A DNA stretch of 61,874 nt from positions 1 through 61,874 of the IMG/VR virus record IMGVR_UViG_3300021404_000012; one strand, given 5' to 3'. A program made the position numbers and the translations under genes. This document shows positions 171 to 61,874 of this stretch, piece after piece. The number at the start of each line of letters is the position of its first letter. Position 1 is the first letter of the stretch. The notes beneath the pieces were generated by a model. The model was not told where the DNA came from, searched no databases, and saw only the letters and a list, made by a program, of their open reading frames with translations. This DNA is from a virus. Its lineage: Duplodnaviria > Caudoviricetes.

Positions 171-194
171 GTCGTCTCCACTACGGTAGTGGTC

Positions 195-413
195 ACGCTC
201 CACACTTGGGTTCTCGCTCCTGATCGGGCTCGCGCTCACCTAAGGGGTTCTCGCAAGTACGAGGGCTCGCGCATGAGGCTGGGTTCTCGCAGTTTAATGG
301 GCTCGCGCGTGGGGCAGGGTTCTCGCTGATTGTGGGGCTCGCGCATTGACTAGGGTTCTCGCAGTACAAAAGGCTCACGCCGCTCGTTGGGTTCTCGCCA
401 GCACTTTGGGCTT
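195..413 (-). ncRNA. TIGR-like dual-repeat guide array (6 units) downstream of the helicase
   Basis: Alternating GCGCGAGCCC and GCGAGAACCC(C) repeats separated by 8-nt variable spacers, 36-37 nt period. Confidence 0.9.
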
Positions 414-1968
414 AATATTCCAGCACCTGCTGGTGAAACAGCTCCAGCAACATGCCCTGGAAAGTGGCACGTTCACGTAGACGCTTGTACGCTAACCGCT
501 CCACCGGGGTCCCAATCAGGTGGGCAATAATTGTTTTCGACAGTTGTCCGGGTCTTACGATACGAGCGTTGGCTTGCTCGTAGGTTTCATAATTATTGGT
601 TGGGCCGAACCAGACGATGAGGTTGGCGGCGGTTAGGTTTAGCCCATGAGACATACAGCCGGGGTGCGCGACGATCACCCTCGGCTCGGGTTCCTCCTGA
701 AAGGCGCGGAAGGTCTTGTTTCTAAACCCGACCGGCGAGCCGCCGTGGATCACCGCAACGCTGGTCTCCTTTTGGAGGGCCGCAGCGACGCCCTCTAACG
801 CGTGGATGAACGGCACGAAGACGATCACCTTGCGGCTGGTGCTCGCGACCAGCTCGCTCAGCATGTCGATCCGGTTGTCGTTGGATAATTTTATTTTAGT
901 TCCCTTGTCGGAGTAGACATACCCCAAGGAAACTTGAAGTAACTTGCTCTGCAGCACGCCCTCGTTGACGGCGGTCACCACCTCGCCGCGCTGGGTCATC
1001 ATCGATGCCTTATCGAACAGCAGCTTGTACGCCTTGCGCGTCTCGGGTTCGAGCTGCACCTGATGGTCCCGATAGATCGTCGGCGGCAGCTCGATCACGT
1101 CGGTCAGCGCGAACCTGACGCTCGGCTGCATCTGCTCGTACACGATGTCCATCGCCTGCGGGCGGTTCACCCACTTGAAGCCGGTGATCTGGCGCATCGT
1201 CATGTCCTTGAACCGGTTCAGCGACGTGCTGGTCCGGTCGGGGGTGAGCAGCCTGATCTGCCCCCACGCATCGGTCGCGGCCTTGGGCACCGGCGAGCCG
1301 GTCAACCCCCACACAAACTGCGGCGGCTTCGCGCCGCTGCGGATGACGGCGTTCGCCGCCTTCCACAGGTCGGTTGACTTATTGCGGAACGTCGCCTGTT
1401 CGTCGATCACAAAGATGTCGAAACCCTTTTTGATCAGCGCGTCGCGCATCAGCGGCAGGCCGTGGTGGTTGATGATGTAGAAGTCGGCGTCATCCTCCAG
1501 GCGCTCCAGCCGCGTGCGCCGGTCGCCGTGCAGCACTCTTACCCTGGCAAGAGGCAACAGCCGAAACAGCTCGGCCTCCCAAACGGGGGTTAAAGTAGAC
1601 AGGGGGGCGGCGATCAGCACCCGCTTCGCGCCGGCGTGCCGGCGTAGATAGTCCGCCGCCCAGATGACGGCGCGGGTCTTACCGGTGCCAAATTCATTCA
1701 GCACATACGCGCTCGCGCTCTCAGTCAGCAGTGCTGCCGTGATCTTCTGGGTGTGCCAGGGTTTCTGGTTGCACCAGTCGTAGCGCGTGAGGATCGGCGC
1801 GGGGACGGGGATGCCCAGGTTGCGCGCGACCTTCGCCTCGGCGTGTTGATTGGGGACCAGCAACATGCGCTGCCCCTGGTAGTCGAGAGCGCGGGCGTGC
1901 GGCATCACGCTCGCGAGGTCCTGCCTCCAAGGCACGACAATGTGATTAGCGTCGGCGGTAACAAACAT
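412..1968 (-). CDS. SNF2/DEAD-like superfamily 2 helicase
   Basis: NEFGTGKT Walker A, VIDE motif II, LTGSP motif III, HGLNLT and QANARIVRPGQ motifs; probable start ATG 1968. Confidence 0.9.
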   Translation of the reverse strand: MFVTADANHIVVPWRQDLASVMPHARALDYQGQRMLLVPNQHAEAKVARNLGIPVPAPILTRYDWCNQKPWHTQKITAALLTESASAYVLNEFGTGKTRAVIWAADYLRRHAGAKRVLIAAPLSTLTPVWEAELFRLLPLARVRVLHGDRRTRLERLEDDADFYIINHHGLPLMRDALIKKGFDIFVIDEQATFRNKSTDLWKAANAVIRSGAKPPQFVWGLTGSPVPKAATDAWGQIRLLTPDRTSTSLNRFKDMTMRQITGFKWVNRPQAMDIVYEQMQPSVRFALTDVIELPPTIYRDHQVQLEPETRKAYKLLFDKASMMTQRGEVVTAVNEGVLQSKLLQVSLGYVYSDKGTKIKLSNDNRIDMLSELVASTSRKVIVFVPFIHALEGVAAALQKETSVAVIHGGSPVGFRNKTFRAFQEEPEPRVIVAHPGCMSHGLNLTAANLIVWFGPTNNYETYEQANARIVRPGQLSKTIIAHLIGTPVERLAYKRLRERATFQGMLLELFHQQVLEY

Positions 1969-1970
1969 TC

Positions 1971-2279
1971 CTACACACTCCTGTTGCCCACTACCGTAGT
2001 GATCCATTGTTCCAGTTCCACTATCCGGTCGTAGCTGTTGATGACGAAGACGCGTGCGCCGCTCTGTTCAATCTCGCTTATTGTCATTTCCTGCATCGGG
2101 GTTGGCTTGCCACCAATCCGTTTCGCTTCGATCGCAAAGCCAAGTCCACAGCAGAAACCTATATAATCCAATGTCCTGCGTCCGTACCCTCCCGGCACCG
2201 GCATATAGGCGTACACATGCGGGCGGTAACGATCCAGCACCGCCTTGATCCCGCGCTTGATCTTCGTCTCTGGGGTCAT
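1971..2279 (-). CDS. VRR-NUC domain nuclease (putative Holliday junction resolvase)
   Basis: TPETKIK...LDYI...AIEAK..GGKPTPMQ PD-(D/E)XK VRR-NUC pattern. Confidence 0.85.
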   Translation of the reverse strand: MTPETKIKRGIKAVLDRYRPHVYAYMPVPGGYGRRTLDYIGFCCGLGFAIEAKRIGGKPTPMQEMTISEIEQSGARVFVINSYDRIVELEQWITTVVGNRSV

Positions 2280-7242: not shown

Positions 7243-7519
7243 CTTCACACTCCGTCTGTTCGCCCCGGTGAACCGTCAGTGGCACCGACATGCGATGATG
7301 TTCAAAGGAAACTTGGTAGTAGCCGGTCATGCCGTCTGTCGTCATCCCGACCACTTCAACACTGGTCTCGCCTCCCCAGTTTATTTTTGATAACTCGATC
7401 GCGAACGCCTCCGCTGCCTCCTTCATCCACTGCTTCACCACTACGGTAGTGGTTTGGTCGTTGGTGAAGCGCCAGTACGGCGCTTCACTTGGGTCGTAGA
7501 TGCCGGGGTCCAGGGTCAT
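7229..7519 (-). CDS. Hypothetical protein
   Basis: ORF in operon, ATGA coupling. Confidence 0.55.
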   Translation of the reverse strand: MTLDPGIYDPSEAPYWRFTNDQTTTVVVKQWMKEAAEAFAIELSKINWGGETSVEVVGMTTDGMTGYYQVSFEHHRMSVPLTVHRGEQTECEDAKL

Positions 7520-10514: not shown

Positions 10515-11723
10515 TTAACTTCTCGCGGCACGAAGAATGTCCTTGTTGTCGACCAGCCACTGCTGGACCTCACGCAGGGGCATCAGCGCCTTGGCACGAC
10601 GGATGTGCGCCATCGTCTGCTCGGTGTCCTTGTCCTCGTGACCGCCCAGCATCACGTCGAACGCGATACGCTGCATCTCGGTGCTGAAGCGCAGCACATA
10701 GCGGGTGATGGCTTGGGCTGTATCTTCAGTAACTTGGTCTGCCAACATGTACGAGCACACCATCTGCGCGTCCTTACCCGCCGGCACCTTCGCAGAACGG
10801 GGGTTCTGGAAGATGTCTTCCAACGCCGGTATCTCGTTGGCAAAGCGCATGTGGGTGAAGAACTGCCCTTGGGCGTGCTTGCCGATCCAGCCCTGGCAGA
10901 TTTCCGCCGCCATCAGGGTCATCGGCAGCTTGTCGTTGGCGATGTCCTGCTCGGTCATCATCACCCGCAGGTCCGCGTCCATCTTGCACAGCGTGCGTGC
11001 GGTGCAGAACGGCTCGGGCTTGTCGGGGACTTCCCTTGGAAAAACAATATCGGGTTGCCTCGCAATGAACGCCCTGGTCAGGATGTGCGGGCGATCGTCG
11101 TCGGGCAGGTCCTCAAGGTGACGTAACAAACAACCCGGATCACCCTCGATCTCCATCAAGCCGTGACGGTTGATGATGTGCATCAGCTCGCGGTTGGTAC
11201 CCGACCGGTCGCTGGTCCGGTTCTTGGCACCGACCACCCGCCATGCAGGAGGGAGAAAATGCGTGCCGACGTTGCCGTCGAGGATCAGCGGCGCCGCCGC
11301 CTTGCGCACGTCCTCGTCCGCCTGACCCCACTCGTCGAGAAAAACCACCCCCACTTCAGGAACCTCACCGTCCCAAGTGCCGGGAGGGTAAACCTCCCCG
11401 TCGGGGGTGAAGACCCAGATGTTGTCAACGTCCGGCATCCACGGGGGTAAAGAAAAAACAGTTCTTGGAACCCCGCCCTTGTCGTCCTTGATGGGGATCA
11501 TAAAACCCCGGATGTCGGGGGTCGTCAGGTTGGCGATCATCTCGATGACTAAACCGACTGGGCAAGCCAGTCGTTTAGCGAGACGAGCGCACATTTGTTC
11601 TATACTCTTGCTCTTGCCGACACCGGGTCCCGACTGCAGCATGTACCCGTTGGCACGGGTGCCCCTGCGGATCGCGTCGATATGGGTGTCGATGAGATGC
11701 GCTCTTGCTTGTTCGATATTCAT
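10515..11723 (-). CDS. MoxR-like AAA+ ATPase
   Basis: SGPGVGKS Walker A, VVFLDEW Walker B, sensor N (GAKNR), TARTL. Confidence 0.88.
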   Translation of the reverse strand: MNIEQARAHLIDTHIDAIRRGTRANGYMLQSGPGVGKSKSIEQMCARLAKRLACPVGLVIEMIANLTTPDIRGFMIPIKDDKGGVPRTVFSLPPWMPDVDNIWVFTPDGEVYPPGTWDGEVPEVGVVFLDEWGQADEDVRKAAAPLILDGNVGTHFLPPAWRVVGAKNRTSDRSGTNRELMHIINRHGLMEIEGDPGCLLRHLEDLPDDDRPHILTRAFIARQPDIVFPREVPDKPEPFCTARTLCKMDADLRVMMTEQDIANDKLPMTLMAAEICQGWIGKHAQGQFFTHMRFANEIPALEDIFQNPRSAKVPAGKDAQMVCSYMLADQVTEDTAQAITRYVLRFSTEMQRIAFDVMLGGHEDKDTEQTMAHIRRAKALMPLREVQQWLVDNKDILRAARS

Positions 11724-11786
11724 CGTAGTCACACTCTCCACTACCGGTAGTCACCAGGGACAATCCCTGGTAACGCCCTGTGTATA

Positions 11787-11815
11787 ATAGTACAATCCTC
11801 ATAGTTTCAGGTCAA
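11787..11815 (-). promoter_or_regulatory. Sigma70-type promoter for the AAA/vWA/replication operon, overlapped by a 21-bp operator
   Basis: TTGACC-N17-TACTAT. Confidence 0.75.
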
Positions 11816-11882: not shown

Positions 11883-11919
11883 CTGTCACCGACACTACTG
11901 GTAGTGGTGCCGGTGACAG
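11883..11919 (-). terminator. Hairpin closing the 3' end of the main guide array
   Basis: CTGTCACCG...CGGTGACAG stem enclosing a CACTACTGGTAGTG motif. Confidence 0.6.
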
Positions 11920-12385
11920 CTCGCGCTCGAGCAAGGGGTTCTCGCTATTCATGGGGCTCGCGCAGATCGTTGGGGTTCTCGCCAACTGCTGGGCTCGCGC
12001 CTCATCAAGGGTTTTCCGCTAGGTAAAGGGCTCGCGCCGGGGTAAGGGGTTCTCGCCTAACGTTGGGCTCGCGCTTGATCAAGGGTTCTCGCAAGGCACC
12101 AGGCTCGCGCTCATCGTAGGGGTCATCGCAATAAAGGGGGCTCGCGCAAATCGTGGGGGTTGTCGCTTATGACCGGGCTCGCGCTTAGGGCTGGGTTTCT
12201 CGCTCAAGATTGGGCTCGCGCCCACGTTTGGGTTCTCGCTACTCGTAGGGCTCGCGCAATTTCAAGGGTTTGTCGCTCCAGATTGGGCTCACGCTCCTGC
12301 TAGGGGTTCTCGCTGATGGTTGGGGCTCGCGCCGCTCGAAGGGGTTATCGCAACTATTAAGGCTCGCGCCTACTTTCGGGTTGTC
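11919..12385 (-). ncRNA. Main TIGR-like dual-repeat guide array (12 units plus a partial unit) downstream of the Tas-like gene
   Basis: 36-37-nt period, two alternating repeats, 8-nt unique spacers. Confidence 0.93.
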
Positions 12386-12484
12386 TTGATCGCGCGATGC
12401 GACAGCCAAGCCCATTGGTAAATTTCACACGGACACGCAAATGGATGCCGCCTCCATGATGCTCGCATCCTTATTCTCCTGGGC

Positions 12485-13372
12485 TTATGCAGGGATCGGG
12501 GGTGGGATGTAGTCGACGTGGTGCAAATGACCGATGGGGTACGGCACCGGCGACGCTTGCCCGGTGCGGATCAGCCACACTTCGTTCATGTGAGACAAAA
12601 ATAACTTCACCGCCCAGCGTCGTGCCCTCGCGTCTATCTGCGAGGGTGGCAGCCGGCCCTCGGCGTAATGCTTATAAGTGGGTGTATCCTTGGCAAAACG
12701 AGGCAGCCACTCCTTCGCGGTCTCGACCCGTTTGCCGGTATCGGACATCATCTGTTCAAAGGCTTTTCGCTCGCGGTATTTTCTTCCGTAGAAGCAATCT
12801 TCACGGTTCGAGAGTTTCATAAACGACTGCCCCGCGTGCCAGCATATGGTCTTGAGCTGCACGTTGAAGGGGCGCACCTGGCCCGCCTTCCACGGTTTCT
12901 GGTCGGCTGCGGCCCACCCGACGAATGAATTGATATGACCAGCCGTGGGTCTGGGCACCTCCAGATGCGCGAGAATGCCCGCGCTGATCACCGGCCCGAT
13001 CCCGACGATCTGCCGCATCCAACTACCCATTATATGGGCAGTTGTATAGGTATCCAGGGCGCGCTTGATCTGGCTCTCTAAAATTCTCGACTGATTAAAA
13101 AGCCAGTCGATTAGGACGTGGGGTTCTGGCGTTGTCAGAACTTCACCAGCATCTTCCTCGACCACGACGCCCCTCGCCATCGCGCGGATTTGGTTCGCCG
13201 CGCGCTTGCGGTTTTCCTGCGATGTGTAATACGCATCGACCAAAAATCTGGCTTCTTTTGGACCCATCGTGCGGGCGGCGTTGGCTAAATCTCTGGTTAA
13301 CCTGATGACAGACGGCGCGTGCTCGATGATTTCCTCGTCATCGACATAGGTCGCATAGGCTGGCGATGCCAT
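12485..13372 (-). CDS. Nop-domain/IS110-related RNA-guided DNA-binding protein (TasA-like, no RuvC or HNH)
   Basis: Coiled-coil region then GIGPVISAGILAHL (IS110 Transposase_20-like HhH), PFNVQLKT, YGRKYRERK, IDARARRWAVKLFLSH; no N-terminal DEDD RuvC; flanked on both sides by dual-spacer arrays. Confidence 0.8.
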   Translation of the reverse strand: MASPAYATYVDDEEIIEHAPSVIRLTRDLANAARTMGPKEARFLVDAYYTSQENRKRAANQIRAMARGVVVEEDAGEVLTTPEPHVLIDWLFNQSRILESQIKRALDTYTTAHIMGSWMRQIVGIGPVISAGILAHLEVPRPTAGHINSFVGWAAADQKPWKAGQVRPFNVQLKTICWHAGQSFMKLSNREDCFYGRKYRERKAFEQMMSDTGKRVETAKEWLPRFAKDTPTYKHYAEGRLPPSQIDARARRWAVKLFLSHMNEVWLIRTGQASPVPYPIGHLHHVDYIPPPIPA

Positions 13373-13405
13373 GTTGTTCCCTCCCACTTAACTACGGTAG
13401 TGGGA

Positions 13406-13438: not shown

Positions 13439-13467
13439 AAAAAAAGGGCCGGTCTCTCGACCGGCCC
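13439..13467 (-). terminator. Rho-independent terminator ending the upstream guide array
   Basis: GGGCCGGTC-gaga-GACCGGCCC followed by a T tract on the minus strand. Confidence 0.85.
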
Positions 13468-13470
13468 CCC

Positions 13471-13765
13471 GCGCTGTACAAAGGGGTCATCGCGCGTTGT
13501 AGGGCTCGCGCCCGACGGAGGGTTCTCGCGGTGATACGGGCTCGCGCCAGTCATCGGGGTTATCGCGGAGGATTGGGCTCGCGCTCGTAGTCGGGGTCAT
13601 CGCTTCTTGAGGGGCTCGCGCCGCTTGTCGGGGTTATCGCTCATGTGCGGGCTCGCGCTCGTTGCAGGGGTTGTCGCATATAGCTGGGCTCGCGCTCACC
13701 TTAAGGGTTCTCGTCGTCAACTGGGCTCGCGCACCAGAAAGGGGTTATCGCTTGCTTCAAGGCTC
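13471..13765 (-). ncRNA. TIGR-like guide array (8 units) upstream of the Tas-like gene
   Basis: Same alternating repeats and 8-nt spacers. Confidence 0.92.
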
Positions 13766-13794
13766 AAGGTGCTTGCGCTCTCGTTATACAACAC

Positions 13795-15491: not shown

Positions 15492-15545
15492 TCTAATCCT
15501 CCACTACGGTAGTGGAGCGGCGGTTATCCCGCCGCTCCATTGGGT

Positions 15546-17359: not shown

Positions 17360-17423
17360 CACTCACTCCACTACGGTAGTGGCGGTGAATAGTACCATCG
17401 TACTTTCACCGAACAAATCGTGG

Positions 17424-17603: not shown

Positions 17604-17688
17604 CTCGACCAACTCCAAAAAATAAATCGCCGACCACTACCGTAGTGGCGGTCCGTTCTCGGTACACGCAACCTGCGAGTAACGAGAT

Positions 17689-19532: not shown

Positions 19533-19873
19533 GATTGCGAACTCACACTTTGGTTGTCGGGACGATGTTGTCCCATCAATGGCGAAGCTGATTTGAACTA
19601 CCGGTAGTGCCACCTTCACCGTCACAAAGTGACGGTGCGGACCTGGCCCTTGTGCATGATGCGTGCGTCATTATGCGTGCATCCCGTGCGCGTCACGAGG
19701 CTTCGGCCAGCCCCCGGCCCCGGTCTGTCCATGGCCCCCGGCCTGGCTCCCGCCGCCACCTGCAGCGCCTAGACGAGAGTGACCCAAAAAGTGAAGTTAA
19801 CTTTTATTAACGCCACTTCACCACTACGGTAGTGCGGTACGTCGCACCGGCAGCCCTAGGAACTGCCGGTGCC

Positions 19874-20201
19874 GCGCGTCACTCTGGGTTTCACGCCTAA
19901 AAAAGGGCTCGCGCCATCTGTTGGGTTCAATCGCACATCCTTGGGCTCGCGCCGCATCAAGGGTTTTCCGCTCACCTAAGGGCTTACGCTACTTGCCGGG
20001 TTTTCCGCTTTCCATTTGGTTCGCGCGTTTCTTCGGGGTTCTCGCACAAGGTCGGGCTCGCGCTGCCTGTCGGGTTCTCGCTCAGGACTGGGCTAAATCG
20101 AACCGCCGGCGCCGCCGGCGGCTCACACGCAGAGTGTCGGGGTTTTCGCCTGTAACTGGGTTCGCGCAATACATAGGGTTCAACGCGTGTCCTGAGGGCT
20201 C
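19874..20201 (-). ncRNA. TIGR-like guide array (6+2 units, split by a GC hairpin at 20103-20121)
   Basis: Alternating repeats (loop variants GCGGAAAACCC, GCGATTGAACCC) with 8-nt spacers; 3' hairpin at 19843-19872. Confidence 0.85.
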
Positions 20202-24883: not shown

Positions 24884-24902
24884 TGTCTACCAGTCCCCGC
24901 CC

Positions 24903-24944
24903 GCGCATGGGACAGGGTTTTCACGCGGGTTCGTGGGCTCGCGC
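24903..24944 (-). ncRNA. Single TIGR-like guide unit between terS and terL
   Basis: GCGCGAGCCC-acgaaccc-GCGTGAAAACCC-tgtcccat-GCGC. Confidence 0.8.
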
Positions 24945-24954
24945 CAATCTAGCA

Positions 24955-25521
24955 TCATACTTCGACATCCTCAAACTCGGCGTCGTCCTCGTCGGGACGC
25001 AGCGAGATCGACTGCCGGGGCGGCGGGATTTCATCGGCTTCCACTACGGTAGTGGCGCGGTAATCCTTGCGGCCCCCGGCGAAGTTGATGGTCAGGTTGA
25101 ACGCGGCGCCGAGGGACTTTTGCTGCGCGTCCTTGGCGCCGGCGGGCGCCCCATCCACGCCGGCTCCCCTCTGGAATTGCTTAAAACCGTCGATCCGCTG
25201 CGCGATCGGTGTCCTCGGGTCGTTGATCAGCGCCGTCATCGGGATGATTAATTGTTCAGTGGCGTGCATGAACTTGTTGCGTATCCGCACCTCGGTTGCT
25301 TCGTCGCTCAAGTAGAGCGCCCGCAGTTTGCGCGCCTCGTAGACAATAACCGGGTGCAGCCGCAGGTATTCCTTGAGCGCATCCTTGCCGTCGAGCCCGT
25401 AGCGGTGGGCGATCGTCTCGGCGTCGTGCATCCCCATCGCGAGGTCGTACTGCAGCCGCAGTATCAGCGCGTCTTCCTGCGCCGGGTTCGGGTCGTAGAT
25501 CGAAGGATAAGGGCTGCTCAT
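24955..25521 (-). CDS. Probable terminase small subunit
   Basis: Immediately upstream of terL; N-terminal HTH-like region, FNLTINF strand, acidic tail. Confidence 0.65.
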   Translation of the reverse strand: MSSPYPSIYDPNPAQEDALILRLQYDLAMGMHDAETIAHRYGLDGKDALKEYLRLHPVIVYEARKLRALYLSDEATEVRIRNKFMHATEQLIIPMTALINDPRTPIAQRIDGFKQFQRGAGVDGAPAGAKDAQQKSLGAAFNLTINFAGGRKDYRATTVVEADEIPPPRQSISLRPDEDDAEFEDVEV

Positions 25522-28194: not shown

Positions 28195-28493
28195 TGGCGG
28201 CGACATCATTCGGTGGACCGCCGGCGATGCGCGCGGCGCGTTCGGTGACCCAGACACCGCCGATGGCATCGTCGGCGATGGGCAGCCTCGGCTATCTCGG
28301 CCCCTACGGGCAGATGGATGACCCGGTAAGCAGCGGCCCCGGCAAGTCCATGCAGACGCAGCACATGGGCTCCGTGGTGGGCCGGCGCGGCGCGGGCCGT
28401 TCGCAGATCACCGGCGGCGATCAGGTCGCCCATTCGGTGGGGCACTACGGCAAGAACAACCCGCTTGCCGGCCTGTCGGGGGGTGGCACCTGA
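28191..28493 (+). CDS. Hypothetical protein
   Basis: Coupled ORF in the head operon. Confidence 0.55.
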   Translation: MMAATSFGGPPAMRAARSVTQTPPMASSAMGSLGYLGPYGQMDDPVSSGPGKSMQTQHMGSVVGRRGAGRSQITGGDQVAHSVGHYGKNNPLAGLSGGGT

Positions 28494-28765: not shown

Positions 28766-29785
28766 ATGGCCGACGAAGACACCTCTCACCTCCCTGAACA
28801 GGTTCGTCGTCAGATCGAGCGGGCGAACGAACTATCGCGCGAGTTGGCGACGGAGCCCGGTGAGGGTGACCAGCCGACGGCGGAGGCGCTGCTGCAGGAT
28901 GGCACTACGGTAGTGGAGCCGAGGTCTGAGCCTCGCTCGGAGCCACTACCGGTAGTCGACCCCTCGGCGGCGCCTCCTGTCGCCGGAGAATGGGAGCAGC
29001 GTTACCGCACACTTCAGGGCAAGTATGACAGCGAAATACCGCAGCTACGTGCTCAGGTCCAAGGGCTGGAACGCCTTATCGCAACGCTCCAGGCGGCGCC
29101 GTCACCGGCGTCACCGGCGGGGCCGCTGCAGTACGACGAGAGTGACGTTGACGTTTACGGACAGGACTTCCTCGATGCCGCCGCACGCGCGGCTGCCGCA
29201 CGCTACGAGCCGGTGATCGCCGAGTTGCAGGCGAAGCTTAATCGCCTCGAAGGCGGGCAGACAAACCTCAACGCGCAGTCGCTGGAAAACCAGATGTTCG
29301 GGGCGCTGGACAAGGACCCCGAGCTGATCGGCTGGCGCGAACTCAATCAGGACCAGCGGTTCATTCAGTGGCTGCAGGGTCTCGACGAGTACGCTGGCAT
29401 ACCGCGCAACGATATGCTCCAGCACGCCTACCGCAACGGAGACGCCATGCGTGTCGGTAGGTTTTTCAAGCGTTACATGGCGGAGCATACCGTACCACGC
29501 CCTGCTACGACGGCACCCCAGACTGGCTACCCTGCCCGCCCGAACGGAAACGGACAGATGGTTTCAGCGGGTGGCGCACGCCTAGAGGACATGGTGGTTC
29601 CGGGTCGGGCTGCAGGTCCCGGCGGATCAGGAAACGGCGCTCAAAATTCCCGTATCTGGTCACGAGCCGAAATCACACGCTTCTACCGTGATCGCACTGC
29701 TGGGAAGTTTAGGGGCCGTGAGGATGAAGCCACACGCCTTGAAGCCGACCTTTTTGCTGCGGAGCGGGAAGGGCGTATCCACTAG
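28766..29785 (+). CDS. Probable scaffolding protein
   Basis: Precedes the capsid gene; coiled-coil WEQRYRTLQGKYDSE; ends AEREGRIH. Confidence 0.75.
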   Translation: MADEDTSHLPEQVRRQIERANELSRELATEPGEGDQPTAEALLQDGTTVVEPRSEPRSEPLPVVDPSAAPPVAGEWEQRYRTLQGKYDSEIPQLRAQVQGLERLIATLQAAPSPASPAGPLQYDESDVDVYGQDFLDAAARAAAARYEPVIAELQAKLNRLEGGQTNLNAQSLENQMFGALDKDPELIGWRELNQDQRFIQWLQGLDEYAGIPRNDMLQHAYRNGDAMRVGRFFKRYMAEHTVPRPATTAPQTGYPARPNGNGQMVSAGGARLEDMVVPGRAAGPGGSGNGAQNSRIWSRAEITRFYRDRTAGKFRGREDEATRLEADLFAAEREGRIH

Positions 29786-29798
29786 GAGGGTACGTTAA

Positions 29799-30752
29799 AT
29801 GGCTATTTCACAGGGCACCCCGTATGCGGGTTCTGCCGCCAACCCCGCTTATTCGGGGGCGCCGGCAGGTGGTGTGTTCGTTCCTGAAATCTGGAGCGGC
29901 AAACTGATTGAAAAATTCTACGCCGCGACCGTGCTCGCTGCCATCAGCAACACGGATTACGAGGGCGAGATCAAGAACATGGGCGATAAGGTGAAAATCC
30001 GCACCAAGCCCACGATCCAAATCCGTGACTACCAGCTCGATCAGCAGCTCACCGTGGACCGCCCTTCGGGCTCGACGGTGGAACTGACGATCGATTACGC
30101 CAAATACTTCAATCTGGTGCTGGACGACATCATGGAGCGCCAGAGCGACATGAACCTCATGTCGATGTGGGCCGATGATGCCTCGGAGCAGATGAAGATC
30201 GTCATCGACACAGCGGTGCTGGCAGCTATTCCCGCCGGCATCGACGCCAAGAACAAGGGTGCGACGGCGGGGAACAAGTCGGGCAACATCAACCTTGGTG
30301 TCCTCGGTACGCCAGTTATCCCCACCAAGGACAATATCATCGACCACATCGTCGATATGGGTCAGTGCCTTGATGAATATAATATTCCAGAAACGGGGCG
30401 CTGGCTGGTCATTCCGCCGTGGATCGGCTCGATGATCAAGAAGTCGGACCTGCGTGATGCGTCGATTTCCGGCGATGGTGTTTCCCTCGCCAGGAACGGG
30501 CGCCTCGGCATGATCGATAGGTTTACGCTGTATAGCTCGAACCTCCTGTCAACGGTGACCGACGGCACCCACCAGGCGACGAACGTCCTCGCCGGCCACA
30601 ATGCGGGGTTCACCTTCGCCTCGCAGATCAGCCAGATGGAGACGCTGCGGTCGGAGAGCACCTTCGGCACGCTGCTCCGTGGGCTTCAGGTGTACGGTTA
30701 CAAAGTGATCGATGGCACTACGCTGGTCGACCTCTACGTGGCTCCGACGTAA
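29799..30752 (+). CDS. Major capsid protein
   Basis: FVPEIWSGKL, NTDYEGEIKNMGDKVKI, GRLGMIDRFTLYSSN, RGLQVYGYKV; strong RBS. Confidence 0.9.
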   Translation: MAISQGTPYAGSAANPAYSGAPAGGVFVPEIWSGKLIEKFYAATVLAAISNTDYEGEIKNMGDKVKIRTKPTIQIRDYQLDQQLTVDRPSGSTVELTIDYAKYFNLVLDDIMERQSDMNLMSMWADDASEQMKIVIDTAVLAAIPAGIDAKNKGATAGNKSGNINLGVLGTPVIPTKDNIIDHIVDMGQCLDEYNIPETGRWLVIPPWIGSMIKKSDLRDASISGDGVSLARNGRLGMIDRFTLYSSNLLSTVTDGTHQATNVLAGHNAGFTFASQISQMETLRSESTFGTLLRGLQVYGYKVIDGTTLVDLYVAPT

Positions 30753-30824
30753 GTCGAAAGTACGACCCTGGTACTTTTGTCACTACGGTAGTGGAGGGGG
30801 GCGACCCCCTCCCAGGAGGCCGGC

Positions 30825-31345: not shown

Positions 31346-31980
31346 GCGGCGGTAGCGATCCCTGTGACGCCGGCGGGCTCTTTCAGGGGGGCAGCGGTCT
31401 CGACCGCTTGCTCGACAACGTGGGCGGCGTGGTGCCGGGGCTGACCACCGACGTGCTGACGATGGTGTGCTGGAACACGATCGAGGACTTCTACATGAAG
31501 TCCACCTACCGGCGCGAGCATGTGTACTGGCACCTGCACCCCGGCGAGACGGTGCTGCGCTTCGACCCCTACAATCAGGACTGGCGGGTCTGCCGGTTTA
31601 TGGCGTTCAGCGGGCTTAGCAAGGTAAAGTTCACACCTCCCGGCACGGTCACGGACCTCACCTATCCGACACCGGATAACGATCGCAGTGGCGAGGCGCT
31701 GCTGGCGCTCAGGCCAAAGAACCTGGGTGTGGCGCTGCCCGACGATGTGTGGACGACCTATTTCGATCCGTTGGTGAGCGGTGTTCTGTACCGGCTCTAT
31801 ATCCAGCCGGGGAAGCCGTACAGCGATCTCAACGCGGCGACGGCCTATGGCCGGCTGTACCGCTCGGGCATTGCCAGCGCGCGAGCGGATGCCCAGGCGC
31901 AGCACCTGCGCGAGGGGCAGAGCTGGGCGTTCCCGTACTTCGCGGTCGGGGGACACGCCGATGGCCGACAAGGACTATAA
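31342..31980 (+). CDS. Adaptor/head-completion protein
   Basis: Position in operon; LYRLYIQPGKPYSD motif. Confidence 0.6.
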   Translation: MSGGSDPCDAGGLFQGGSGLDRLLDNVGGVVPGLTTDVLTMVCWNTIEDFYMKSTYRREHVYWHLHPGETVLRFDPYNQDWRVCRFMAFSGLSKVKFTPPGTVTDLTYPTPDNDRSGEALLALRPKNLGVALPDDVWTTYFDPLVSGVLYRLYIQPGKPYSDLNAATAYGRLYRSGIASARADAQAQHLREGQSWAFPYFAVGGHADGRQGL

Positions 31981-39990: not shown

Positions 39991-40293
39991 ATGGCCGAGT
40001 ACAGCGACGTTCCCGAAATTAACTCGCTCTATGAGGAGCGGGAGAACCTCACCAACGGTATCGCCTATGTCGATGGCGGCGGCAGCATGACGTATTTCAC
40101 CATCGAAGCGGAACCGCCAGCGGAGGGCGTGGTCCTGACGATGCCGCAGGTGCCGGTCCGCGTCGTGATGCAGCCGCCGACGCCGCAAGCAACGCTCGAC
40201 AATATCCGGGCGTGGATGGTGCAGCGGCAGGCCGATATCGACAGTCAGTTGTCATTGCTTGGGGTTACCAATACCCCGGCAGCACTACGGTAG
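39991..40293 (+). CDS. Hypothetical protein, paralog of the previous ORF
   Basis: YSDVPEINSL...GGSM...LSLLGVT. Confidence 0.65.
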   Translation: MAEYSDVPEINSLYEERENLTNGIAYVDGGGSMTYFTIEAEPPAEGVVLTMPQVPVRVVMQPPTPQATLDNIRAWMVQRQADIDSQLSLLGVTNTPAALR

Positions 40294-40302
40294 TGGCGAC
40301 CG

Positions 40303-46426: not shown

Positions 46427-49400
46427 ATGGCTGCCGCTTACGACGACGACGAAGACGATGAAGACGATTTTGAGGAGACTACGGCGCAGAGCAGCGACGA
46501 GACTGATCCCGGTTCGCTTAGGTCCGCGCTGCAACCGGCACAGCCCCAGTACAGCCCCCAAACCGAGCCCACGGCTGAACCCGAGCCGACGCCTGAACCG
46601 ATAGCGCCGACGCCGGGTGCGGCTCCTGCATCGGAACCGGCGCCGGCGGCGGCTCAACCGGCAGCGCAACCGCCGCTGCAACTGCCCAAAGGGTGGACCG
46701 CCGATCCCGACGCCCAGCCGGTTTACATCAATCAGCAGCCGGCGGAGGAACCGGCACCCGAGGCCGGTTACCTATCTTCGGCGTGGGGTGGCTTACTCAA
46801 GGGCGGCGCGCAGGAGGTCGAGAAACTCGCCAACCTCACCGCGACGGGGATGCGCAAAGTCGGTAGCTGGACCGATCAGGACTGGGCCAAGAGCGGGGCC
46901 GACTGGCTCGACCAATCGACAAAGGGCTTGTCCGAAGCCGCTGCTAAAAATGCTCCAGTCGGTGACCTGTCAGTCAAGGATGCTTGGGACAAGGGTGTCA
47001 TCGGGCCTTGGATCACCGAGAAGGCTGCCGAGGGCGTCCTGCCATTGGCGGAACTCCTGGCGCTTGGGCGGTTCACAGGCCCGTGGGGGCCGATCGCCTA
47101 CGGCGCGGCGGTGGGCGCGGATCGGGAAGGGCGCCGCCCCGGCTCGACCCCTGAGAGTATAGGCGCGGCAGCGGCTGAAGGCGGGGTTATGTTCGCCGCG
47201 CCGCTTGGCCTGCAGAAGACCACTGAAAATCTCGGTCTCTTTAAGCGCGTCATCGCTAATGTTCTGGGGATGGGCGGGCTTGGCGCGGCTGGCGAGTACA
47301 CCGCGCCCGTACCCGAGGCGGTCGCCACCGGCACCTACAAGGCACCGACAGGCGAGCAGGTCGCGACGGGTGCGGCTACGGGCGCAGTTCAAGGCGCACC
47401 GCTCGCGGCGATGGGCGGACGCCGCGCACCGGAGACCCCGGCGGCGAATGAAGACCCGGCGGTCAAAGCCGCGACCGATGCAGCAGTAAATCCCCAGACC
47501 GTGCCAAATGACCAGGCCGTGCCACCCAATACGCGACCGGTGCCGCCTGGTGCTCCGCCAGGTGTCGATCAGCCGATGACCCCTACGGGGATGCCAAGAG
47601 TTACAGTTCCGACAGATACTGCGCCGCCGGTCGACACCAACCCGCTGCGCGCACGGCAGCAGGGGCTTGGGCAGGGCTACCAGACAACCCCGTCGGACTT
47701 CGCTGCCGGGGGTGCGACGACGACCCCGGCGCCGGATGCAACGGGTCGGGTACGCGGGCTGGGTCCGGCGACGCCGGGTATCGATCCGGCGGCAGAGGCG
47801 GCGCTCGCCGCGACGATGCCGCAAGGCCAGGAACCGCCGGCTAATACCCGCCCAGCACCGCCGGGTCCGCCGGCTGGTGTCGATCAGCCGATGACGCCGC
47901 CGGGGATGCCGCGTGTCGCGCCAACCGAACCCGCCGCGCCGCCCGCAAACCCGCTGCGCGCACGCCAGGAGGGGCTGGCGCAGGGGCCGACGACGCCAGC
48001 GAATTTTGCCGCCGAGGGGACGATCCCGCCGACGCCGCCCGACGTGAACGCGCCGGTGCCGCGTGTGCGCGGGCTTGGCCCGACACCGCCACCGGTGGAA
48101 GCGGCAGATCAGGCGCCGCCTAACGAGCGCCCGGTGCCGCCGGGTGCGCCCCCCGGTGTCAATGAGCCGATGGCACCGGGTGGGATGCCGCGCGTGACGC
48201 CACCCGAACCGGCTGCGCCAACGGAGCCCGTCAATCCCCTGCGCGAGCGGCAGCGGTTCCCCGAGCAGCCGACGACGCCGGCAGACTTCGAGACCGAGCG
48301 GCGCATCCCGACCGCGCCCAGCCCCGAGGAGTTGGAGCCGCCGGGAGGTCGCACGATCCGTCGCTACACAACGGAGCCCGACCACGAAAACCCAGACCAG
48401 CATGTGGCGAAGGACGAGGCTGGCAACGTCGTCGCGCTGGGTAGTACGCCCGAGATAGCGGTCGAGATGGCGCGAGCGCGGGAAGCAGCGGAGGCGCGCG
48501 AGGCTGCTACTGCTCCCACTACCGTAGTGGAGCCGGCGGCTGCACCGGCTGAACCAGCCCCGGTGGCACCGGCTGAACCAAAGGCATCGGCCAAAGCCAG
48601 GGCTAAGGGCGCAAAGATCACCCCCGCCGCTGCCGAGGTGCTCGACAAGGCGGAGGCTAAGCAGGCCGCGCCGGCGCCAGCACCAAAGGCCGCGACCGGC
48701 GAGGCGAAGGCAAAGCCTGCCCTCGTGGAGCTTGTCAGGAAAAGCCTGGGCGTCGGGAAGTCCAAGCCGGTCGAGACCACGGCGCAGACCACGCAGCGTG
48801 GCGAGACGCCCGCCGAACGTAGCGCGCGGATTGCTCGCGAGGTGAGAGCCGATGAGCGCGAGGCCAAACGTATGCCCGCAACGGCGACACCGGCGACGCG
48901 CGGTCTGGAGGATGTCGGCGGGCGTACCGCAGAGGAACAGGTCGAGCGCGTGCCGACAAGGACGCGTGAAGTGCAGACAGTTGCCGAGGCCGAGGGCCGC
49001 GAGACCAGCGAGCTGAAGTCCGATCAGCGCGCTGCCTCGACAACGAGCCTCGCGCTCAAGGCAAGCGATCTGCTGCACGACCATCTGGAAGGCCGGCTCA
49101 AAGACCCGATGGATATTTACGACCGTTACGGTGAGCCGAACGAAGGACGCGGGGCGCCGCGCAAATACGACACCTTCCTCGACTGGCTGAAGGACCGCAT
49201 CAAGACCGCCAAAAACCCCAAGGCGATGGAGGCGATCAACCGCGAAGCGGAGGAACTGAGGACCGACAAGACACTGACACCGGGTCAGCGCAACACGTTG
49301 ATCAAGCGACTGGCTGACCGGCTGCTTACGGAACGCGGCGCGCTCGACAAGATGAAGGCGATGCAGAAGGCGATCGAGATCGGGCTGAAAGAGCGGGCGA

Positions 49401-52400
49401 AACCGGGCGCGAGCGTCTCAAAATCCACGTCGGCGCTGGACAAGATGAAAGCCGCCATCGCGGCGCGCAAGCGGGGTGACAAACCTGCGCTGATGCCCGA
49501 CATGCCGACCGATGCTGCGGAAGTTGTTGCAAACGCGCAACGGCATGGGGTGAACGCGCCGATCGCGAAGCGGCTGGTCGAGAGCTATAAGCGGAATGTC
49601 GGTTTCGACATTCACGATTTTCTCGATGATGTCCTCACCAACCCGCACGCGATGGCGGACACGCCGCACTTCTATGAGCTGGCGCGGATGCTGAAGAACC
49701 TGCCGCGCGGCGCGGTGCGGGTGGCGGAGTGGGGTGTCGCCGGTCAGGACCCGTCGATAAAGGCTGGCGGGTTTTACCTTCACGACCTCATCGGGCTGAA
49801 ACTTGGTCAGTCAGGCGACGCGTCGCATATCGAGGCGCTGCTGCACGAGGGTACGCACGCCGCGACCTTTCACTTTTTAAGTGATATCGGTGACCGCATC
49901 GCGGCGGAGAAAGCCGGCGACACACCTTGGCCGAGGCCGGTGACGCCAGAGGAACGCCGTGTTTACGGCGCGATGCAGGCGTTGCAGCGCGAGCTTAACC
50001 GGATGCTCAAGAGCAGCGCGTCGCGCTCAGACATCGAGAATTTCTACACGCACTACGCGGCTCACGGTGGGCCAAGTCCCTTAACCGAGATGCCTACGAT
50101 GCTGATGACGAACCCGCACGCGCAGGCGTGGGCGCGGCGCACCGCACCGAGCAGGACGCTCAAAGCCGAGCTGACACGCCTCGGCATGGCACCCGAAGAA
50201 ACGACGACCGTGTGGAGCAGCTTTAAGAACGCGGTCCGCCGGATGTTTGGCGGACGGCCTGGGAGTGACAACGTACTCGAATGGGCGCTGCGCCCTCTTA
50301 CCGAGAGTGTCGATACTGGGATCAAGTACCGGGCAGAATACCCCGGTGTCTACGGCGAGGAATTTCCTTCACGGGTTGGCAGCGTCGCGGCGGCGTTGCG
50401 CGATGCCGAGACGAGGGATACCACAAGCCAGCGTGAGCTGACCCGTCAGACCCGCGAGCGGCTGACCGACGCATTGCCCGATCCCGAGGCGCGGCAGCGG
50501 CTGCAGAACTTTGGCGACCGGGTGGCGTACCTGAAGTTCAACAGCACCGACGACCTCAAGACGGCGCTGCGCAGGGCGAAAGGTGACAACCTTAAAACTC
50601 TGCGTTCCCTTGGGCTGCCCAGCATGTCCACGTCGTCGATCGCGCAGTATTACCAGCGTGAGGCGCCGTTCGCGGATGGCATTCGTGACCTGCGTGGTAA
50701 GATGCAGCGGGCGCAGCAGGAGGTGATCGCGAGGCACGGGGATCAGGTGCGCGACTGGTACAAGCAGTTGAAGAAAGCCGGCAATGATTTTGGTGACTTC
50801 CTCAACAATGTGACACTGGCGAAGGCATCGATCGGGCACGCCGATTTCGATGCGCGCAACGCCCACCTCAACGCCGACGAGCTGAAGGTGGCGCAGGGGC
50901 TGCAGCAGCAGTACGAGGCGATGCCGCGTCATCAGCAGCAGCTCTATCAGGAGCTGCGGGACTTCTACCTCGAACGCGGCTGGGCCGAGCGGCACGCGGC
51001 GGCTGACTACGCGATCGACATGGGCCTGTCGGGTGGCGAACACCCGATCACCGACGAACAGCGCGCCCAGCTCAGGCGCATCCTGCGGTCAAAGACCGAG
51101 CTGGATAACCTCCTGCGCAATCCCGACAGCAGCGACTACGCCAGGTCGATGGGCGAAGCCTGGGCTCAGAACGGGGCGATGACCAAGGAAATCCTGCGGA
51201 TGCACCGCCAGGGGTGGATCGATGGCGACTACTTCCCGCTGCGCCGCTATGGCGACTGGATCGTCACCACGGGCGATCCGCTGAACCCGCAGGAGACCGG
51301 GCACGCCGTTCACTTCTTTGAGCGGTCGAGCGAGGCCGAGGCGTTCCGCGACGGGCTTGAGGCTGAAAAGACCGAGCCCGGTCAGCCCCGTATGAAAATC
51401 TCGCCGGTCATCCAGAAGGCGACGCACGCCGCCGGCTACGAGGCGCTGCGGGGCGTGCTTCCCGAGCGGATGCTGGCGCAGTTCGAGAGCGCCGCGACCG
51501 CGCGGGGGATGAACGAGGAACAGCGGTCAACCGCGCGCGACGCGCTCGCCGGGACGCTGATGCACTACCTGACGCAGAGCCAGGGGGCGCGGCTGAACCT
51601 CAAGCGGCGGGGTGTGGCCGGTGCGTCCAGCGACGCCGGCAAGGTGCTGGCGAACGAGCTGACGACCCATGCCGCGCGGATGGGGTTCCTGTCGCACGGC
51701 GCCGAGGAGAACATGGCGTTTGGCAACGCCGAGCGGTACGTGAAGAACTTGCAGCAGGCGCGCGCACCGGCGACCGCCGACGAGATCGCCGCCTCGCGCC
51801 AGCGGCTCAACGAGGCCGAGGCGAAATTCAAGGCTGGCGATCCGGCATACAGCCGCGCGGAGATCGAGGACCTGCGCCAGCAGCACGCGTGGCTGGAGAA
51901 GCCGCCCTCGACCGCTGACCAGAACGCGGCACGGTCGGTGCTCGACGAGCTGAAGGCGCGGCGCGGGCCGATCGACGGCGACGAGAGCACGAAGTGGCTG
52001 GGCGCGGGCGCCAGGGGCTTCACTACCGGTAGTTTCATCTACCACCTTATCCGTCCGGCGCAGATGCTCTACCAGACACTCGACGCGCACGCCAACGCGC
52101 AGGCGTTCCTGGGCGGGCGGTTCGGGCAGGCGCGCGCGGGTGCCGCGCTGGTGCGGGCACTCAAGGATATCGGGCCGATGGGGGTTGGCGGAACCGTCCG
52201 CAACTCGTTCCGCGCCGCACACGGCGCGATGAAGGAGAGCGACTGGCACTTCTCTGACATGTTCGAGAAGAAGCTGGCGACGCTGTTTCAGGGTCCAAAT
52301 GTGACTAAGGAAGCAGCCGCTGCAAAAGCGAAGGCGCTGATGGACGCGGCGAACGATCGCGGCCTGATCAACATGAGCCAGATGCGCGAGCTGCAGCGCA

Positions 52401-53863: not shown

Positions 53864-53965
53864 CCCTACCTCGGGCGAGAACCCCTAAAGAAGCGCGAGC
53901 CCTGTTGGCAGCGCGAACCCAGCTACAGGCGCGAGCCCCGGAGGAGGTGCCAACCCCCGTAACAA
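53861..53965 (+). ncRNA. TIGR-like guide array (about 3 units) at the end of the virion operon
   Basis: AGCCC-N8-GCGAGAACCC-N8-GCGCGAGCCC-N8-GCGCGAACCC-N8-GCGCGAGCCC. Confidence 0.8.
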
Positions 53966-55704: not shown

Positions 55705-56916
55705 TCATGCACAGCAGTACGCATCCCAGGCTTTCATCAAGGGGATACGCCGCTCCAGCAGGTCGCTGCGCATGTAGGCCCGCGACGCCTTGTTGCCCAC
55801 CTTGTGGCCGATGGCTAGCTCGCAGGTTTCCCAATCAGCGAGCCCGACTTGCTCCCCGGCCCAGTCGCGGAAAGTCGAGCGGAAACCGTGGATGGTGATC
55901 TTATAGTCCACCAATGGGTAGCACACGGCGGGTAACACACCGTCGTTGATTGGCCTATCGCCTGCGTAGAAGCCTGGAAGTATGTAGCTGTTGCGTCGCT
56001 CTGTAGCGAGGATATCGAGAACTCCCCGCATCCGCTCGGTGATCGGGACGCGAAAATGTTTGAGAGGCGTACCCTCAAGCAGCTTCTTTAAGCCTCGCGT
56101 ATCCTTGGGGATGTTCCATAATTCGCCGGTTAGATCAAAGTCGTCCCACTTCGCATTGCGCACGACGCTCACCCGCATCCCCGAGAGCATCACCAGCTCA
56201 GCGCCTCGCGCAGCCATGTGGTCAACCTCGCGCAAGCGCGTCATGAACGCCGGGGCGTCGGCGGGCTCTAGGCGGGCATAGTTCTCCGTGCTGGGTTTGA
56301 CCAGTTTCGTGTCGATGCGATCTACCGGATTGATGAGGACGTAATCGTTATTCGCTGCGTAGCGGAACATTCGGTTCAACAGGTCACGCACCCGCCGTGG
56401 TACGTCCTTGTGTTTCGCTTTCAGTGACAGAAGGTGGTCACGAAGTTGTAGAGGGGTGATCGACCGAATGGGGAGTAACCCGAACTTTGGTAAGATGTGG
56501 AGTTCCGCTACTCGACAGCAGGTGCTCCTGTGGAGATAGCTGGTCTCGCCCAACAGTAGTTCTTTTGACCATTCTCGCCAGACTTCCTCGACTGTCCGCG
56601 CTTCGACTACTGCGACAGAATTTGCTCGCCGGCTGGCTTCCTTCTCAGCTTTGCGCTGAGCAATCGGGTCGCTGCCCCGGCGCAGGAGCTTCCTCGCGTC
56701 GTTACGGGCTTCGCGTGCGTCCGCTAGCGTTACGTCGCGCAGCGAACCCAGCCCCATCTCGCGGGTCTTGCCGCCCGACGGGTAACGGTACATCCACGAC
56801 TTAGCATTCTGATTAGTGATCTGCAGATAGAGCCCACCGCCATCGGCGTAGAGACCTGGGTTCCTCAGGTTCCTGACTTCTCTATCGGTCAAACGGTTGT
56901 GCTTAATCACTGGCAT
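55705..56916 (-). CDS. int: P4-like tyrosine integrase
   Basis: Arm-binding N-domain (YADGGGLYL), GMRVS, HGFRSTFRDW, IGH, RAY catalytic residues. Confidence 0.93.
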   Translation of the reverse strand: MPVIKHNRLTDREVRNLRNPGLYADGGGLYLQITNQNAKSWMYRYPSGGKTREMGLGSLRDVTLADAREARNDARKLLRRGSDPIAQRKAEKEASRRANSVAVVEARTVEEVWREWSKELLLGETSYLHRSTCCRVAELHILPKFGLLPIRSITPLQLRDHLLSLKAKHKDVPRRVRDLLNRMFRYAANNDYVLINPVDRIDTKLVKPSTENYARLEPADAPAFMTRLREVDHMAARGAELVMLSGMRVSVVRNAKWDDFDLTGELWNIPKDTRGLKKLLEGTPLKHFRVPITERMRGVLDILATERRNSYILPGFYAGDRPINDGVLPAVCYPLVDYKITIHGFRSTFRDWAGEQVGLADWETCELAIGHKVGNKASRAYMRSDLLERRIPLMKAWDAYCCA

Positions 56917-61269: not shown

Positions 61270-61311
61270 GGGGGAGCCTCATGTTTGAAAGTATGAGACT
61301 GTTACTTTCAC

Positions 61312-61692
61312 CTATGCGGAGCGGACGCGCAAGACCGTTGCCTGGGAAATCTTCACACCGGGGATCGGTTTTTTGGTTTCTTCGAGCACTTCTAAACTGG
61401 CGTTCTTCGCGACGCGAGCTTCGAGCAAATCCCACAACTCATGCTCGCGGATAAAGTCCAGCGTCCGTTCCCAGTTCTCGACCGTGACGCTGGTGCTGGT
61501 TTGCTTAAAGGCCGTGCCGGCGGGGCCGTTCACGCTGTCGAGCTTGGTCGCGTGCAGGTGCCGCATCAGCTCGGTTTCCAGTTGCTGCATCATGTTGATG
61601 TAGGGCTCCAGCTCCTTGACGTGCTTGCCCTTAATCTCCGCCGATTTATTGCGCAGCTTGATGTACTTCTCGATCATGTCCGCTGGCGTCAT
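61312..61692 (-). CDS. Conserved hypothetical replication-module protein
   Basis: MTPADMIEKYIKLR...W...LLEARV...IPGV. Confidence 0.7.
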   Translation of the reverse strand: MTPADMIEKYIKLRNKSAEIKGKHVKELEPYINMMQQLETELMRHLHATKLDSVNGPAGTAFKQTSTSVTVENWERTLDFIREHELWDLLEARVAKNASLEVLEETKKPIPGVKISQATVLRVRSA

Positions 61693-61743
61693 TCGCGGCT
61701 CCATTGCTTGATATTGTAGGGGGTGAGGTAGGCGAAGTTGATC

Positions 61744-61869
61744 CGCTTGTCTGGGGGATCGTCCCACCACAAGCGGGCGATCTCGTAGTTATCGCGTGCG
61801 CCCTCGAAGGGGTTCTCGATCCGGTCGATCACCCCGGCGTGTCCGCGCCAGGGTGAGTGATCTCCGGTA
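61744..61869. repeat. Terminal direct repeat/assembly overlap, copy of 1-126
   Basis: Exact copy of the window start. Confidence 0.95.
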
Positions 61870-61874
61870 GACCC

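Follow-up and report, generated by a model that had tools for sequence, protein, structure and literature searches.

The stretch of DNA analyzed here, called the window, is a virus record of 61874 bases and corresponds to a circularly permuted phage genome, with positions 1–139 repeated at 61736–61874. Adjoining the 3′ end of an SNF2-type helicase gene (412–2007, minus strand) lies TIGR array 1, and positions 309–334 are the core of the third of its six units, u3, as read on the minus strand. The features of this array, of the other arrays in the genome, of the gene for a Tas-family protein and of the gene matched by u3 are:

190–417, minus strand: TIGR array 1, units u1–u6 at a period of 36–37 nt, its first edge repeat truncated at the 5′ end and its last one degenerate
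327–334, minus strand: spacer A of u3, CACAATCA on the minus strand
317–326, minus strand: loop repeat of u3, GCGAGAACCC, A-rich and different among units, as are the loop repeats in PMC12045711 (section 8)
309–316, minus strand: spacer B of u3, TGCCCCAC on the minus strand
11918–12395, minus strand: TIGR array 2, 12 full units
12485–13387, minus strand: tasA, encoding a 300-residue Nop-domain protein without a nuclease domain, between arrays 2 and 3
13471–13790, minus strand: TIGR array 3, six full units plus terminal units, ending in the 3′-truncated edge repeat GCGCG
13443–13470, minus strand: terminator-like 12-bp hairpin with a T-run, directly after array 3
19886–20200, minus strand: TIGR array 4, degenerate
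24898–24945, minus strand: solitary TIGR-like unit
53874–53940, plus strand: small TIGR array on the opposite strand, after an open reading frame of 2397 residues
60193–61269, minus strand: SSB-like gene of 358 residues, with a four-cysteine zinc knuckle, a linker rich in proline and alanine, and an acidic C-terminal tip that is conserved

The minus-strand arrays alternate two repeats of 9–10 nt each, GCGCGAGCC(C) and GCGAGAACC(C), which separate variable spacers of 8+8 nt at a period of 36–37 nt; 22 full TIGR units were parsed in the window. This is the dual-repeat anatomy described by Faure et al. (PMC12045711, sections 4, 5 and 8), in which box D and box C motifs are common to both repeats and the loop is A-rich and non-specific (section 8). 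In keeping with it, both repeats begin with GCG and end with CC(C) and differ in their middles (CGAG versus AGAA, and variants), and the second repeat has an A-rich middle part that changes from unit to unit, GCGATAACCCC and GCGACAACCCC being among its variants. The strand and phase of the arrays are fixed by array 3, because it ends in GCGCG followed by the 12-bp hairpin and T-run, so that a truncated terminal edge repeat and a terminator stand together there as in described arrays. No terminator-like site was found after array 1, despite its truncated first edge repeat. The initial annotation had located the guide in a ‘helicase-distal’ array, a label that is ambiguous, as array 1 adjoins the 3′ end of the helicase gene.

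Read on the minus strand, positions 300–344 give GCGCGAGCCC-CACAATCA-GCGAGAACCC-TGCCCCAC-GCGCGAGCCC. That u3 is a TIGR guide unit is borne out by this succession of repeats and spacers and by the presence of a Tas-family protein in the same genome. Its mature tigRNA would be 36 nt long and would consist of half an edge repeat, CACAATCA, the loop GCGAGAACCC, TGCCCCAC and another half edge repeat. Array 1 would be transcribed and processed into tigRNAs that are predicted to bind and repress their targets; among RNA runs, none was listed that contains the sequence. An Rfam scan of the whole window returned no family at the gathering score.

In sequence and length, the tasA product agrees with a Nop domain plus a coiled coil. 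No Pfam family was matched at E ≤ 0.01; the protein matches PHROG 4285, ‘transposase’, and in phmmer it matches the TasR chain 9mty_A with an E-value of 1e-6. Homologues are numerous (1318 at E ≤ 0.001 among 1953 candidates, some of them with PF02371), and the closest relative found, P0003, is 88% identical; the phage GenBank set yielded no relative of the protein. An AlphaFold model built on 36 sequences (pLDDT 82.6, pTM 0.79) is almost wholly helical, with one short hairpin (E74–77, E83–86) and no RuvC-like sheet. When this model was compared with the PDB by Foldseek, all 10 matches with E ≤ 0.001 were to TasH or TasR (E 1e-5 to 3e-4, TM about 0.5), with IS110-family recombinases next. The protein was assigned to TasA because neither a RuvC nor an HNH nuclease domain was seen.

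Several observations concern the arrays as a whole. TIGR units far from tasA (19886–20200, 24898–24945 and 53874–53940) would be missed by surveys restricted to the surroundings of tas genes. The spacer TTAGGTGA recurs: in array 1 it is spacer B of u5, array 3 has it as TAAGGTGA, and in array 4 it serves as a spacer A. Duplicated spacers are also found in TasA-bearing relatives, GAAATTCA twice in genome G002, and CATTGAAT and AATGTCTT twice each in genome G004; the recurring spacers suggest that TIGR arrays grow by duplication of units. Contigs from soil metagenomes, which are short fragments of near relatives, contain joints within array 2 (11939–12369) that skip 37, 110 or 383 nt and may reflect strain variation in the number of units or an assembly artefact in repeats. 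The spacers have a GC content of 0.41, against 0.61 for the genome, and of 0.39–0.53 against 0.64–0.66 in three relatives (G002–G004; loci L025–L033), which is compatible with targets that are themselves AT-rich, for instance promoters or genomes of lower GC, or with a preference for easily melting DNA. The open reading frame of 2397 residues that precedes the small array lies in the structural region (46427–53620). An integrase gene (55705–56916; PHROG 1, E 1.5e-42) indicates a temperate lifestyle, and a prophage could express the TIGR-TasA system.

Cleavage guided by tigRNA is reported to obey a ‘C-5 rule’ on each strand and to leave 8-nt 3′ overhangs (PMC12045711, sections 7 and 8). By our derivation, both features result only if spacer A is joined in the target strand to the reverse complement of spacer B. 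Built by the tandem-spacer rule, the 16-bp target of u3 is CACAATCAGTGGGGCA, that is, CACAATCA followed by GTGGGGCA, the reverse complement of spacer B, as it had been constructed in the initial annotation. That annotation had further proposed that the guide encodes HNQWG of the phage’s own SSB-like gene. The site in question (60891–60906, minus strand) does match at 12 of 16 positions in the frame of the SSB-like gene, CAT AAC CAG TGG GGT T, and the complete codons differ from those of the guide target synonymously only. It lies 1138 nt downstream of the u3 guide on the circular map, on the same strand, close to the 1.2 kb claimed.

These sequence facts, the geometry and the position of the site in a conserved zinc knuckle stand; the single match does not rise above chance. 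The window contains three other sites with at least 12/16 identity to the u3 target, two of which are better (511–526 and 28429–28444, 13/16; 31378–31393, 12/16), and a 12/16 match is expected about four times per guide in this genome. All 22 guides together have 80 own sites at ≥ 12/16, compared with 51–101 in controls with wrong geometry or mispaired spacers. At least one synonymous-only match at ≥ 12/16 arose in 35–68% of control sets (24 guides per set, 40 sets per control type), with a mean of 0.5–0.9 such matches per set over 400 sets per type, against three among all 24 guides of the window (P = 0.018–0.055). By itself, the likeness of u3 to HNQWG is at chance level. Moreover, according to preprint 10.64898/2026.08.11.744272, most single mismatches strongly reduce the activity of SpTasH over its 16 guide nucleotides and adjacent double mismatches abolish it; because 4 of the 16 positions are mismatched, the phage’s own SSB-like gene is most likely not bound by u3. 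These counts make it quite plausible, if just short of an even bet, that u3 is a genuine tigRNA guide whose resemblance to HNQWG, together with the array-1 cluster described below, is pure coincidence, its real targets lying elsewhere, in the host, in unrelated mobile elements or in unsampled phages.

The SSB-like label is plausible but weakly supported. In common with T4 gp32-type SSBs, the protein has a putative zinc-binding subdomain, a disordered linker and an acidic C-terminal tip, and its fold weakly matches that of the gp32 core (1gpc, E 0.056, probability 0.80). It differs from them in that it has no Pfam match, the phiC31 recombination directionality factor is its top match in the PDB (E 7.6e-3) and the TM-scores of its PDB matches are low (0.26–0.41). 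Across an alignment of 37 family members, C97, C117, C120 and C139 are invariant and W-G-S is invariant or nearly so, with the H, N and Q positions variable; among 244 homologues, HNQWG is the commonest variant, found in 21. With 4366 representative clusters at E ≤ 0.001, the family is very large.

The initial annotation had pointed to related phages as the place where homologues with guide-perfect codons should occur. A degenerate C-x-x-C-x-HNQWG pattern retrieved at least 119 viral stretches and 34 genomic ones, giving 153 sampled sites, 127 of which match the SSB-like protein by tblastn at E ≤ 1e-3. The identity of these 153 sites to the u3 target is distributed as follows:

11/16: 10 sites
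12/16: 25 sites
13/16: 40 sites
14/16: 59 sites
15/16: 19 sites
16/16: 0 sites

From codon frequencies, about 1.2% of the sites would be perfect, or 0.4–0.9% by GC class, which corresponds to 1–2 of the 153. The exact u3 16-mer occurs 15 times in the viral_contigs set, never in an SSB-like homologue. In the metagenome_contigs set, the 16-mer preceded by zinc-knuckle codons occurs twice, and both occurrences are homologues: locus L022 (44.5% amino acid identity over 238 residues, GC 0.56, replication gene order kept) and locus L021 (38% over 112 residues, GC 0.46, against 0.61 in the window). Guide-perfect codons thus exist in the family, in two distant members; among the closest relatives the site reaches 13/16 to 14/16, namely 14/16 in G005 and G006 (78–80% amino acid identity in the SSB-like protein) and 13/16 in G001 (about 59–68%, depending on the method). 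The best SSB-like matches in the phage GenBank set are Rhizobium phages, at 44.5%. In a family of this size perfect codon variants must exist; this speaks for coincidence, as does the absence of a perfect site where 1–2 were expected, with the two metagenomic ones in distant homologues. Because the family is very large and perfect sites occur at or below the rate set by codon usage, guide-perfect codons cannot separate the explanations considered here.

The genomes G005, G006 and G007 (loci L187–L196), which are closest to the window in the replication module, have about 23 kb in common with it at about 71% nucleotide identity. They carry neither tasA nor the edge repeat, and TIGR-TasA is for this reason considered variably present in the phage group.

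What gives the u3 match its interest is the company it keeps. Five of the six guides of array 1 have own near-matches of 12–13/16 within about 600 bp, located ~0.6–1.1 kb downstream of the array, a stretch that runs from the preceding gene through the region upstream of the SSB-like gene into the 5′ part of that gene. In the order of the units, the near-targets are:

u1: 61454–61469, plus strand, 12/16, inside the upstream gene (61312–61770, minus strand)
u2: no own match of ≥ 12/16 at the locus
u3: 60891–60906, minus strand, reading CATAACCAGTGGGGTT, 12/16, encoding HNQWG
u4: 61275–61290 (minus strand) and 61285–61300 (plus strand), 12/16 each, overlapping within an inverted repeat that lies shortly before the start codon of the SSB-like gene
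u5: 61300–61315, plus strand, 13/16, in the upstream region
u6: 60921–60936, minus strand, 12/16, in the SSB-like coding region

The matches of u4 and u5 hit a region of 42 nt just ahead of the SSB-like start codon. As a statistic we used the number of guides with an own match of ≥ 12/16 in one window of sequence, defined after the pattern had been noticed. Starting from 60890, array 1 places four of its six guides within 500 bp and five within 1000 or 2000 bp. Against spacers re-paired from all arrays (600 trials each), these values correspond to P = 0.003, 0.002 and 0.007 for 500, 1000 and 2000 bp, respectively. None of 265 mispairings within the array attained them, and among 1000 letter shuffles two did so at 500 bp and one at 1000 bp. 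Five wrong geometries built from the same spacers, as well as an alternative repeat phase, gathered only two or three guides. The cluster also survives a change of measure: when the best identities are summed without a threshold, the maximum falls in the same position (P = 0.0075–0.01 against shuffles, 0–0.005 against mispairings), and the four complete units alone put three of four guides within 425 bp (P = 0.013–0.023).

The restriction of the cluster to true pairing and published geometry, and its robustness to window size and measure, argue against coincidence, as does the fact that the synonymous-only match of u3 falls in the very locus of the cluster. The same is true of L021, where u3 matches at 16/16 and u4 at 14/16 at position −24, just upstream of the start codon of the same gene and 357 nt away. 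Among 24 combinations of array and genome, moreover, array 1 on its own genome is the only one to exceed all 60 shuffles. Weighing in favor of chance, the test was post hoc and becomes marginal after broad correction, P being roughly 0.03–0.05 once the 24 tests are taken into account. Nor does the cluster have a counterpart elsewhere, since the same test found no clustering for arrays 2 and 3, and the arrays of the TasA-bearing relatives G002–G004 have no excess of matches at ≥ 14/16, whether the genome scanned is their own, that of another of the three or the window.

Perfect matches in close relatives, with mismatches in the carrier, would be the signature of guides directed against kin. The guides reach 12–13/16 at the locus in the window and at most 14/16 in the closest relatives. 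G005 and G006 show no cluster, with u3 at 14/16, u4 at 11–12/16 and guides other than u3 at 12/16 or below. No genome with perfect targets for several array-1 guides was found in the contig sets searched. The exact 16-mers of u4 and u5 have nine and three matches, respectively, in viral_contigs, none in a relative (no tblastn matches of window proteins nearby), and a joint u5 and u4 pattern has no match in genome_contigs; the scan of metagenome_contigs covered only the u3 pattern. The guides of the window and of the three TasA-bearing relatives were also run against two loci and seven genomes. At ≥ 14/16 there were 11 matches with the real geometry versus 5–7 in controls, and at ≥ 15/16 two versus none, a difference that is not convincing; the count of 11 leaves aside the perfect u3 sites of L021 and L022, since the guide’s own sequence had served to retrieve them. 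At the protein level, the near-matches of u1 and u6 would need three amino acid changes each in rival proteins, and one of the required changes, K to D before the invariant Q113, is absent from the 37-sequence alignment.

Several guides also have matches elsewhere in the window. The predicted target of u5, TCGTACTTTCACCTAA, is matched at 15/16 at 17398–17413 and at 13/16 at 30750–30765; by estimate, about 0.03 matches of 15/16 are expected over all guides. Both sites are non-coding, lie 15–16 nt from a copy of a 15-bp palindrome and have in common GAAAGTACGA...GGTACT, just upstream of the palindrome and of the ribosome-binding site of the next gene; they may represent a repeated promoter-like module that is a real TIGR target. 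For u4, a 13/16 match at 11795–11810 falls inside the spacer of a promoter-like TTGACC-17-TACTAT (11815–11787, minus strand). The last unit of array 2, with predicted target CATGAATATCGAGCAA, has a synonymous-only 14/16 match at 11709–11724, at the start codon of an ATPase gene about 200 nt downstream of the array.

The palindrome itself, CCACTAC(C/G)GTAGTGG, occurs at 14 places, that is, 28 strand matches versus 1.3 expected. Several copies stand just before a Shine-Dalgarno sequence and start codon, and others lie within coding regions. Its positions are:

178–192, 1988–2002, 7438–7452, 13389–13403, 15501–15515, 17368–17382 and 17634–17648
19821–19835, 25041–25055, 28902–28916, 30780–30794, 40282–40296, 48516–48530 and 57307–57321

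A 13-bp core of the palindrome is found four times in G005, nine times in G006 and once in G001, and is absent in G002–G004 and G007. The palindrome may act as an operator, form an RNA hairpin at 5′ ends or serve as a site of recombination.

The cluster might also be self-directed, with the guides autoregulating the phage’s own downstream replication operon by imperfect pairing, or with spacers that were copied from adjacent DNA and then drifted. In favor of this reading, the near-matches are best in the phage’s own genome rather than in any relative examined, and they lie a short way downstream of array 1, on the same strand, with no terminator-like site found after the array. It also draws on the placement of u4 and u5 ahead of the SSB-like start codon, on the 15/16 match of u5 in its intergenic promoter-like module, on the match of the last array-2 unit to the start codon of the next gene downstream, and on the action of TasA as a repressor (preprint 10.64898/2026.09.09.750476). 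However, the own sites carry 3–4 mismatches per 16 nucleotides, spread over central and outer positions, and SpTasH, according to preprint 10.64898/2026.08.11.744272, is sensitive to single and adjacent double mismatches. TasA-bearing relatives have no self-matches at ≥ 14/16, and near-matches are weakly enriched in non-coding DNA (P = 0.05–0.23 at ≥ 13/16). We regard self-direction as unlikely.

Because five of the six array-1 guides near-match the same ~600-bp locus, we favor, with a probability of roughly 45%, the reading that array 1 is aimed at variant alleles of the phage’s own replication locus in related rival phages. This reading supposes rivals that carry perfect targets. With tigRNA as their guide, TasA proteins bind DNA and act as repressors of transcription (Xu et al., preprint 10.64898/2026.09.09.750476, section 12). 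Loaded with array-1 tigRNAs, the nuclease-less TasA of this phage would sit on the target DNA as a roadblock: u4 and u5 would occupy the promoter or 5′ untranslated region of the rival SSB-like gene, u3 and u6 its 5′ coding region, and u1 the preceding gene. A phage or prophage armed with TasA would thereby silence early replication genes of superinfecting relatives. The outcome would be heterotypic superinfection exclusion by RNA-guided repression, in which 3–4 mismatches per site would spare the phage’s own copy.

A comparable logic has been proposed for virus-borne mini-CRISPR arrays, whose guides are directed against closely related viruses and serve heterotypic superinfection exclusion, according to Medvedeva et al. 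2019 (PMC6858448). As described there, however, mini-CRISPR is another RNA-guided system, which borrows host Cas proteins, and closely related viruses in one population were shown to carry mutual spacers; in the present case the searches turned up no close relative whose targets are perfect. The system of the window resembles described dual-repeat TIGR-TasA (PMC12045711; preprint 10.64898/2026.09.09.750476) in its edge and loop repeats of the form GCG...CCC, its 36-nt unit, its location on a phage, its truncated terminal edge repeat followed by a terminator and its Nop-domain protein of about 300 residues without a nuclease. It differs in that its arrays occupy six or more loci, as far as tens of kb away from tasA and one of them on the other strand, and in the statistical hint of a target for one array. 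With SpTIGR-TasH of Salicola phage CGphi29 (PMC12045711; preprint 10.64898/2026.08.11.744272), it has in common the 8+8 = 16 guide nucleotides, the dual repeats and the phage host, and no structures match the TasA model better than those of TasH. In contrast to TasA, TasH has an HNH nuclease and cuts DNA, and the identity in the structural alignment is 15–18%.

The system is thus an ordinary dual-repeat TIGR-TasA, with 8+8-nt spacers as in SpTIGR, and a nameable natural target would be new. Both Faure et al. (PMC12045711) and Xu et al. (preprint 10.64898/2026.09.09.750476) give the natural targets of TIGR spacers, and with them the biological role of the system, as undetermined, on the grounds that short spacers produce many false matches; this warning by Xu et al. 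(2026) speaks for coincidence. A literature search found no paper naming natural TIGR targets, and supplementary tables or TIGRSafari may list this locus. We put forward only tentatively, at somewhat less than even odds, that array 1 is the first natural TIGR array with nameable targets, the rival alleles of the phage’s own replication locus. Should the convergence be due to chance, u3 would be an ordinary guide of a phage TIGR-TasA system without a known target. With five of its six guides resembling one neighbouring locus, array 1 gives a hint of a natural TIGR target, and, if the reading is true, the concentration of most guides of one array on a single locus would make the question of TIGR targets testable at the bench.
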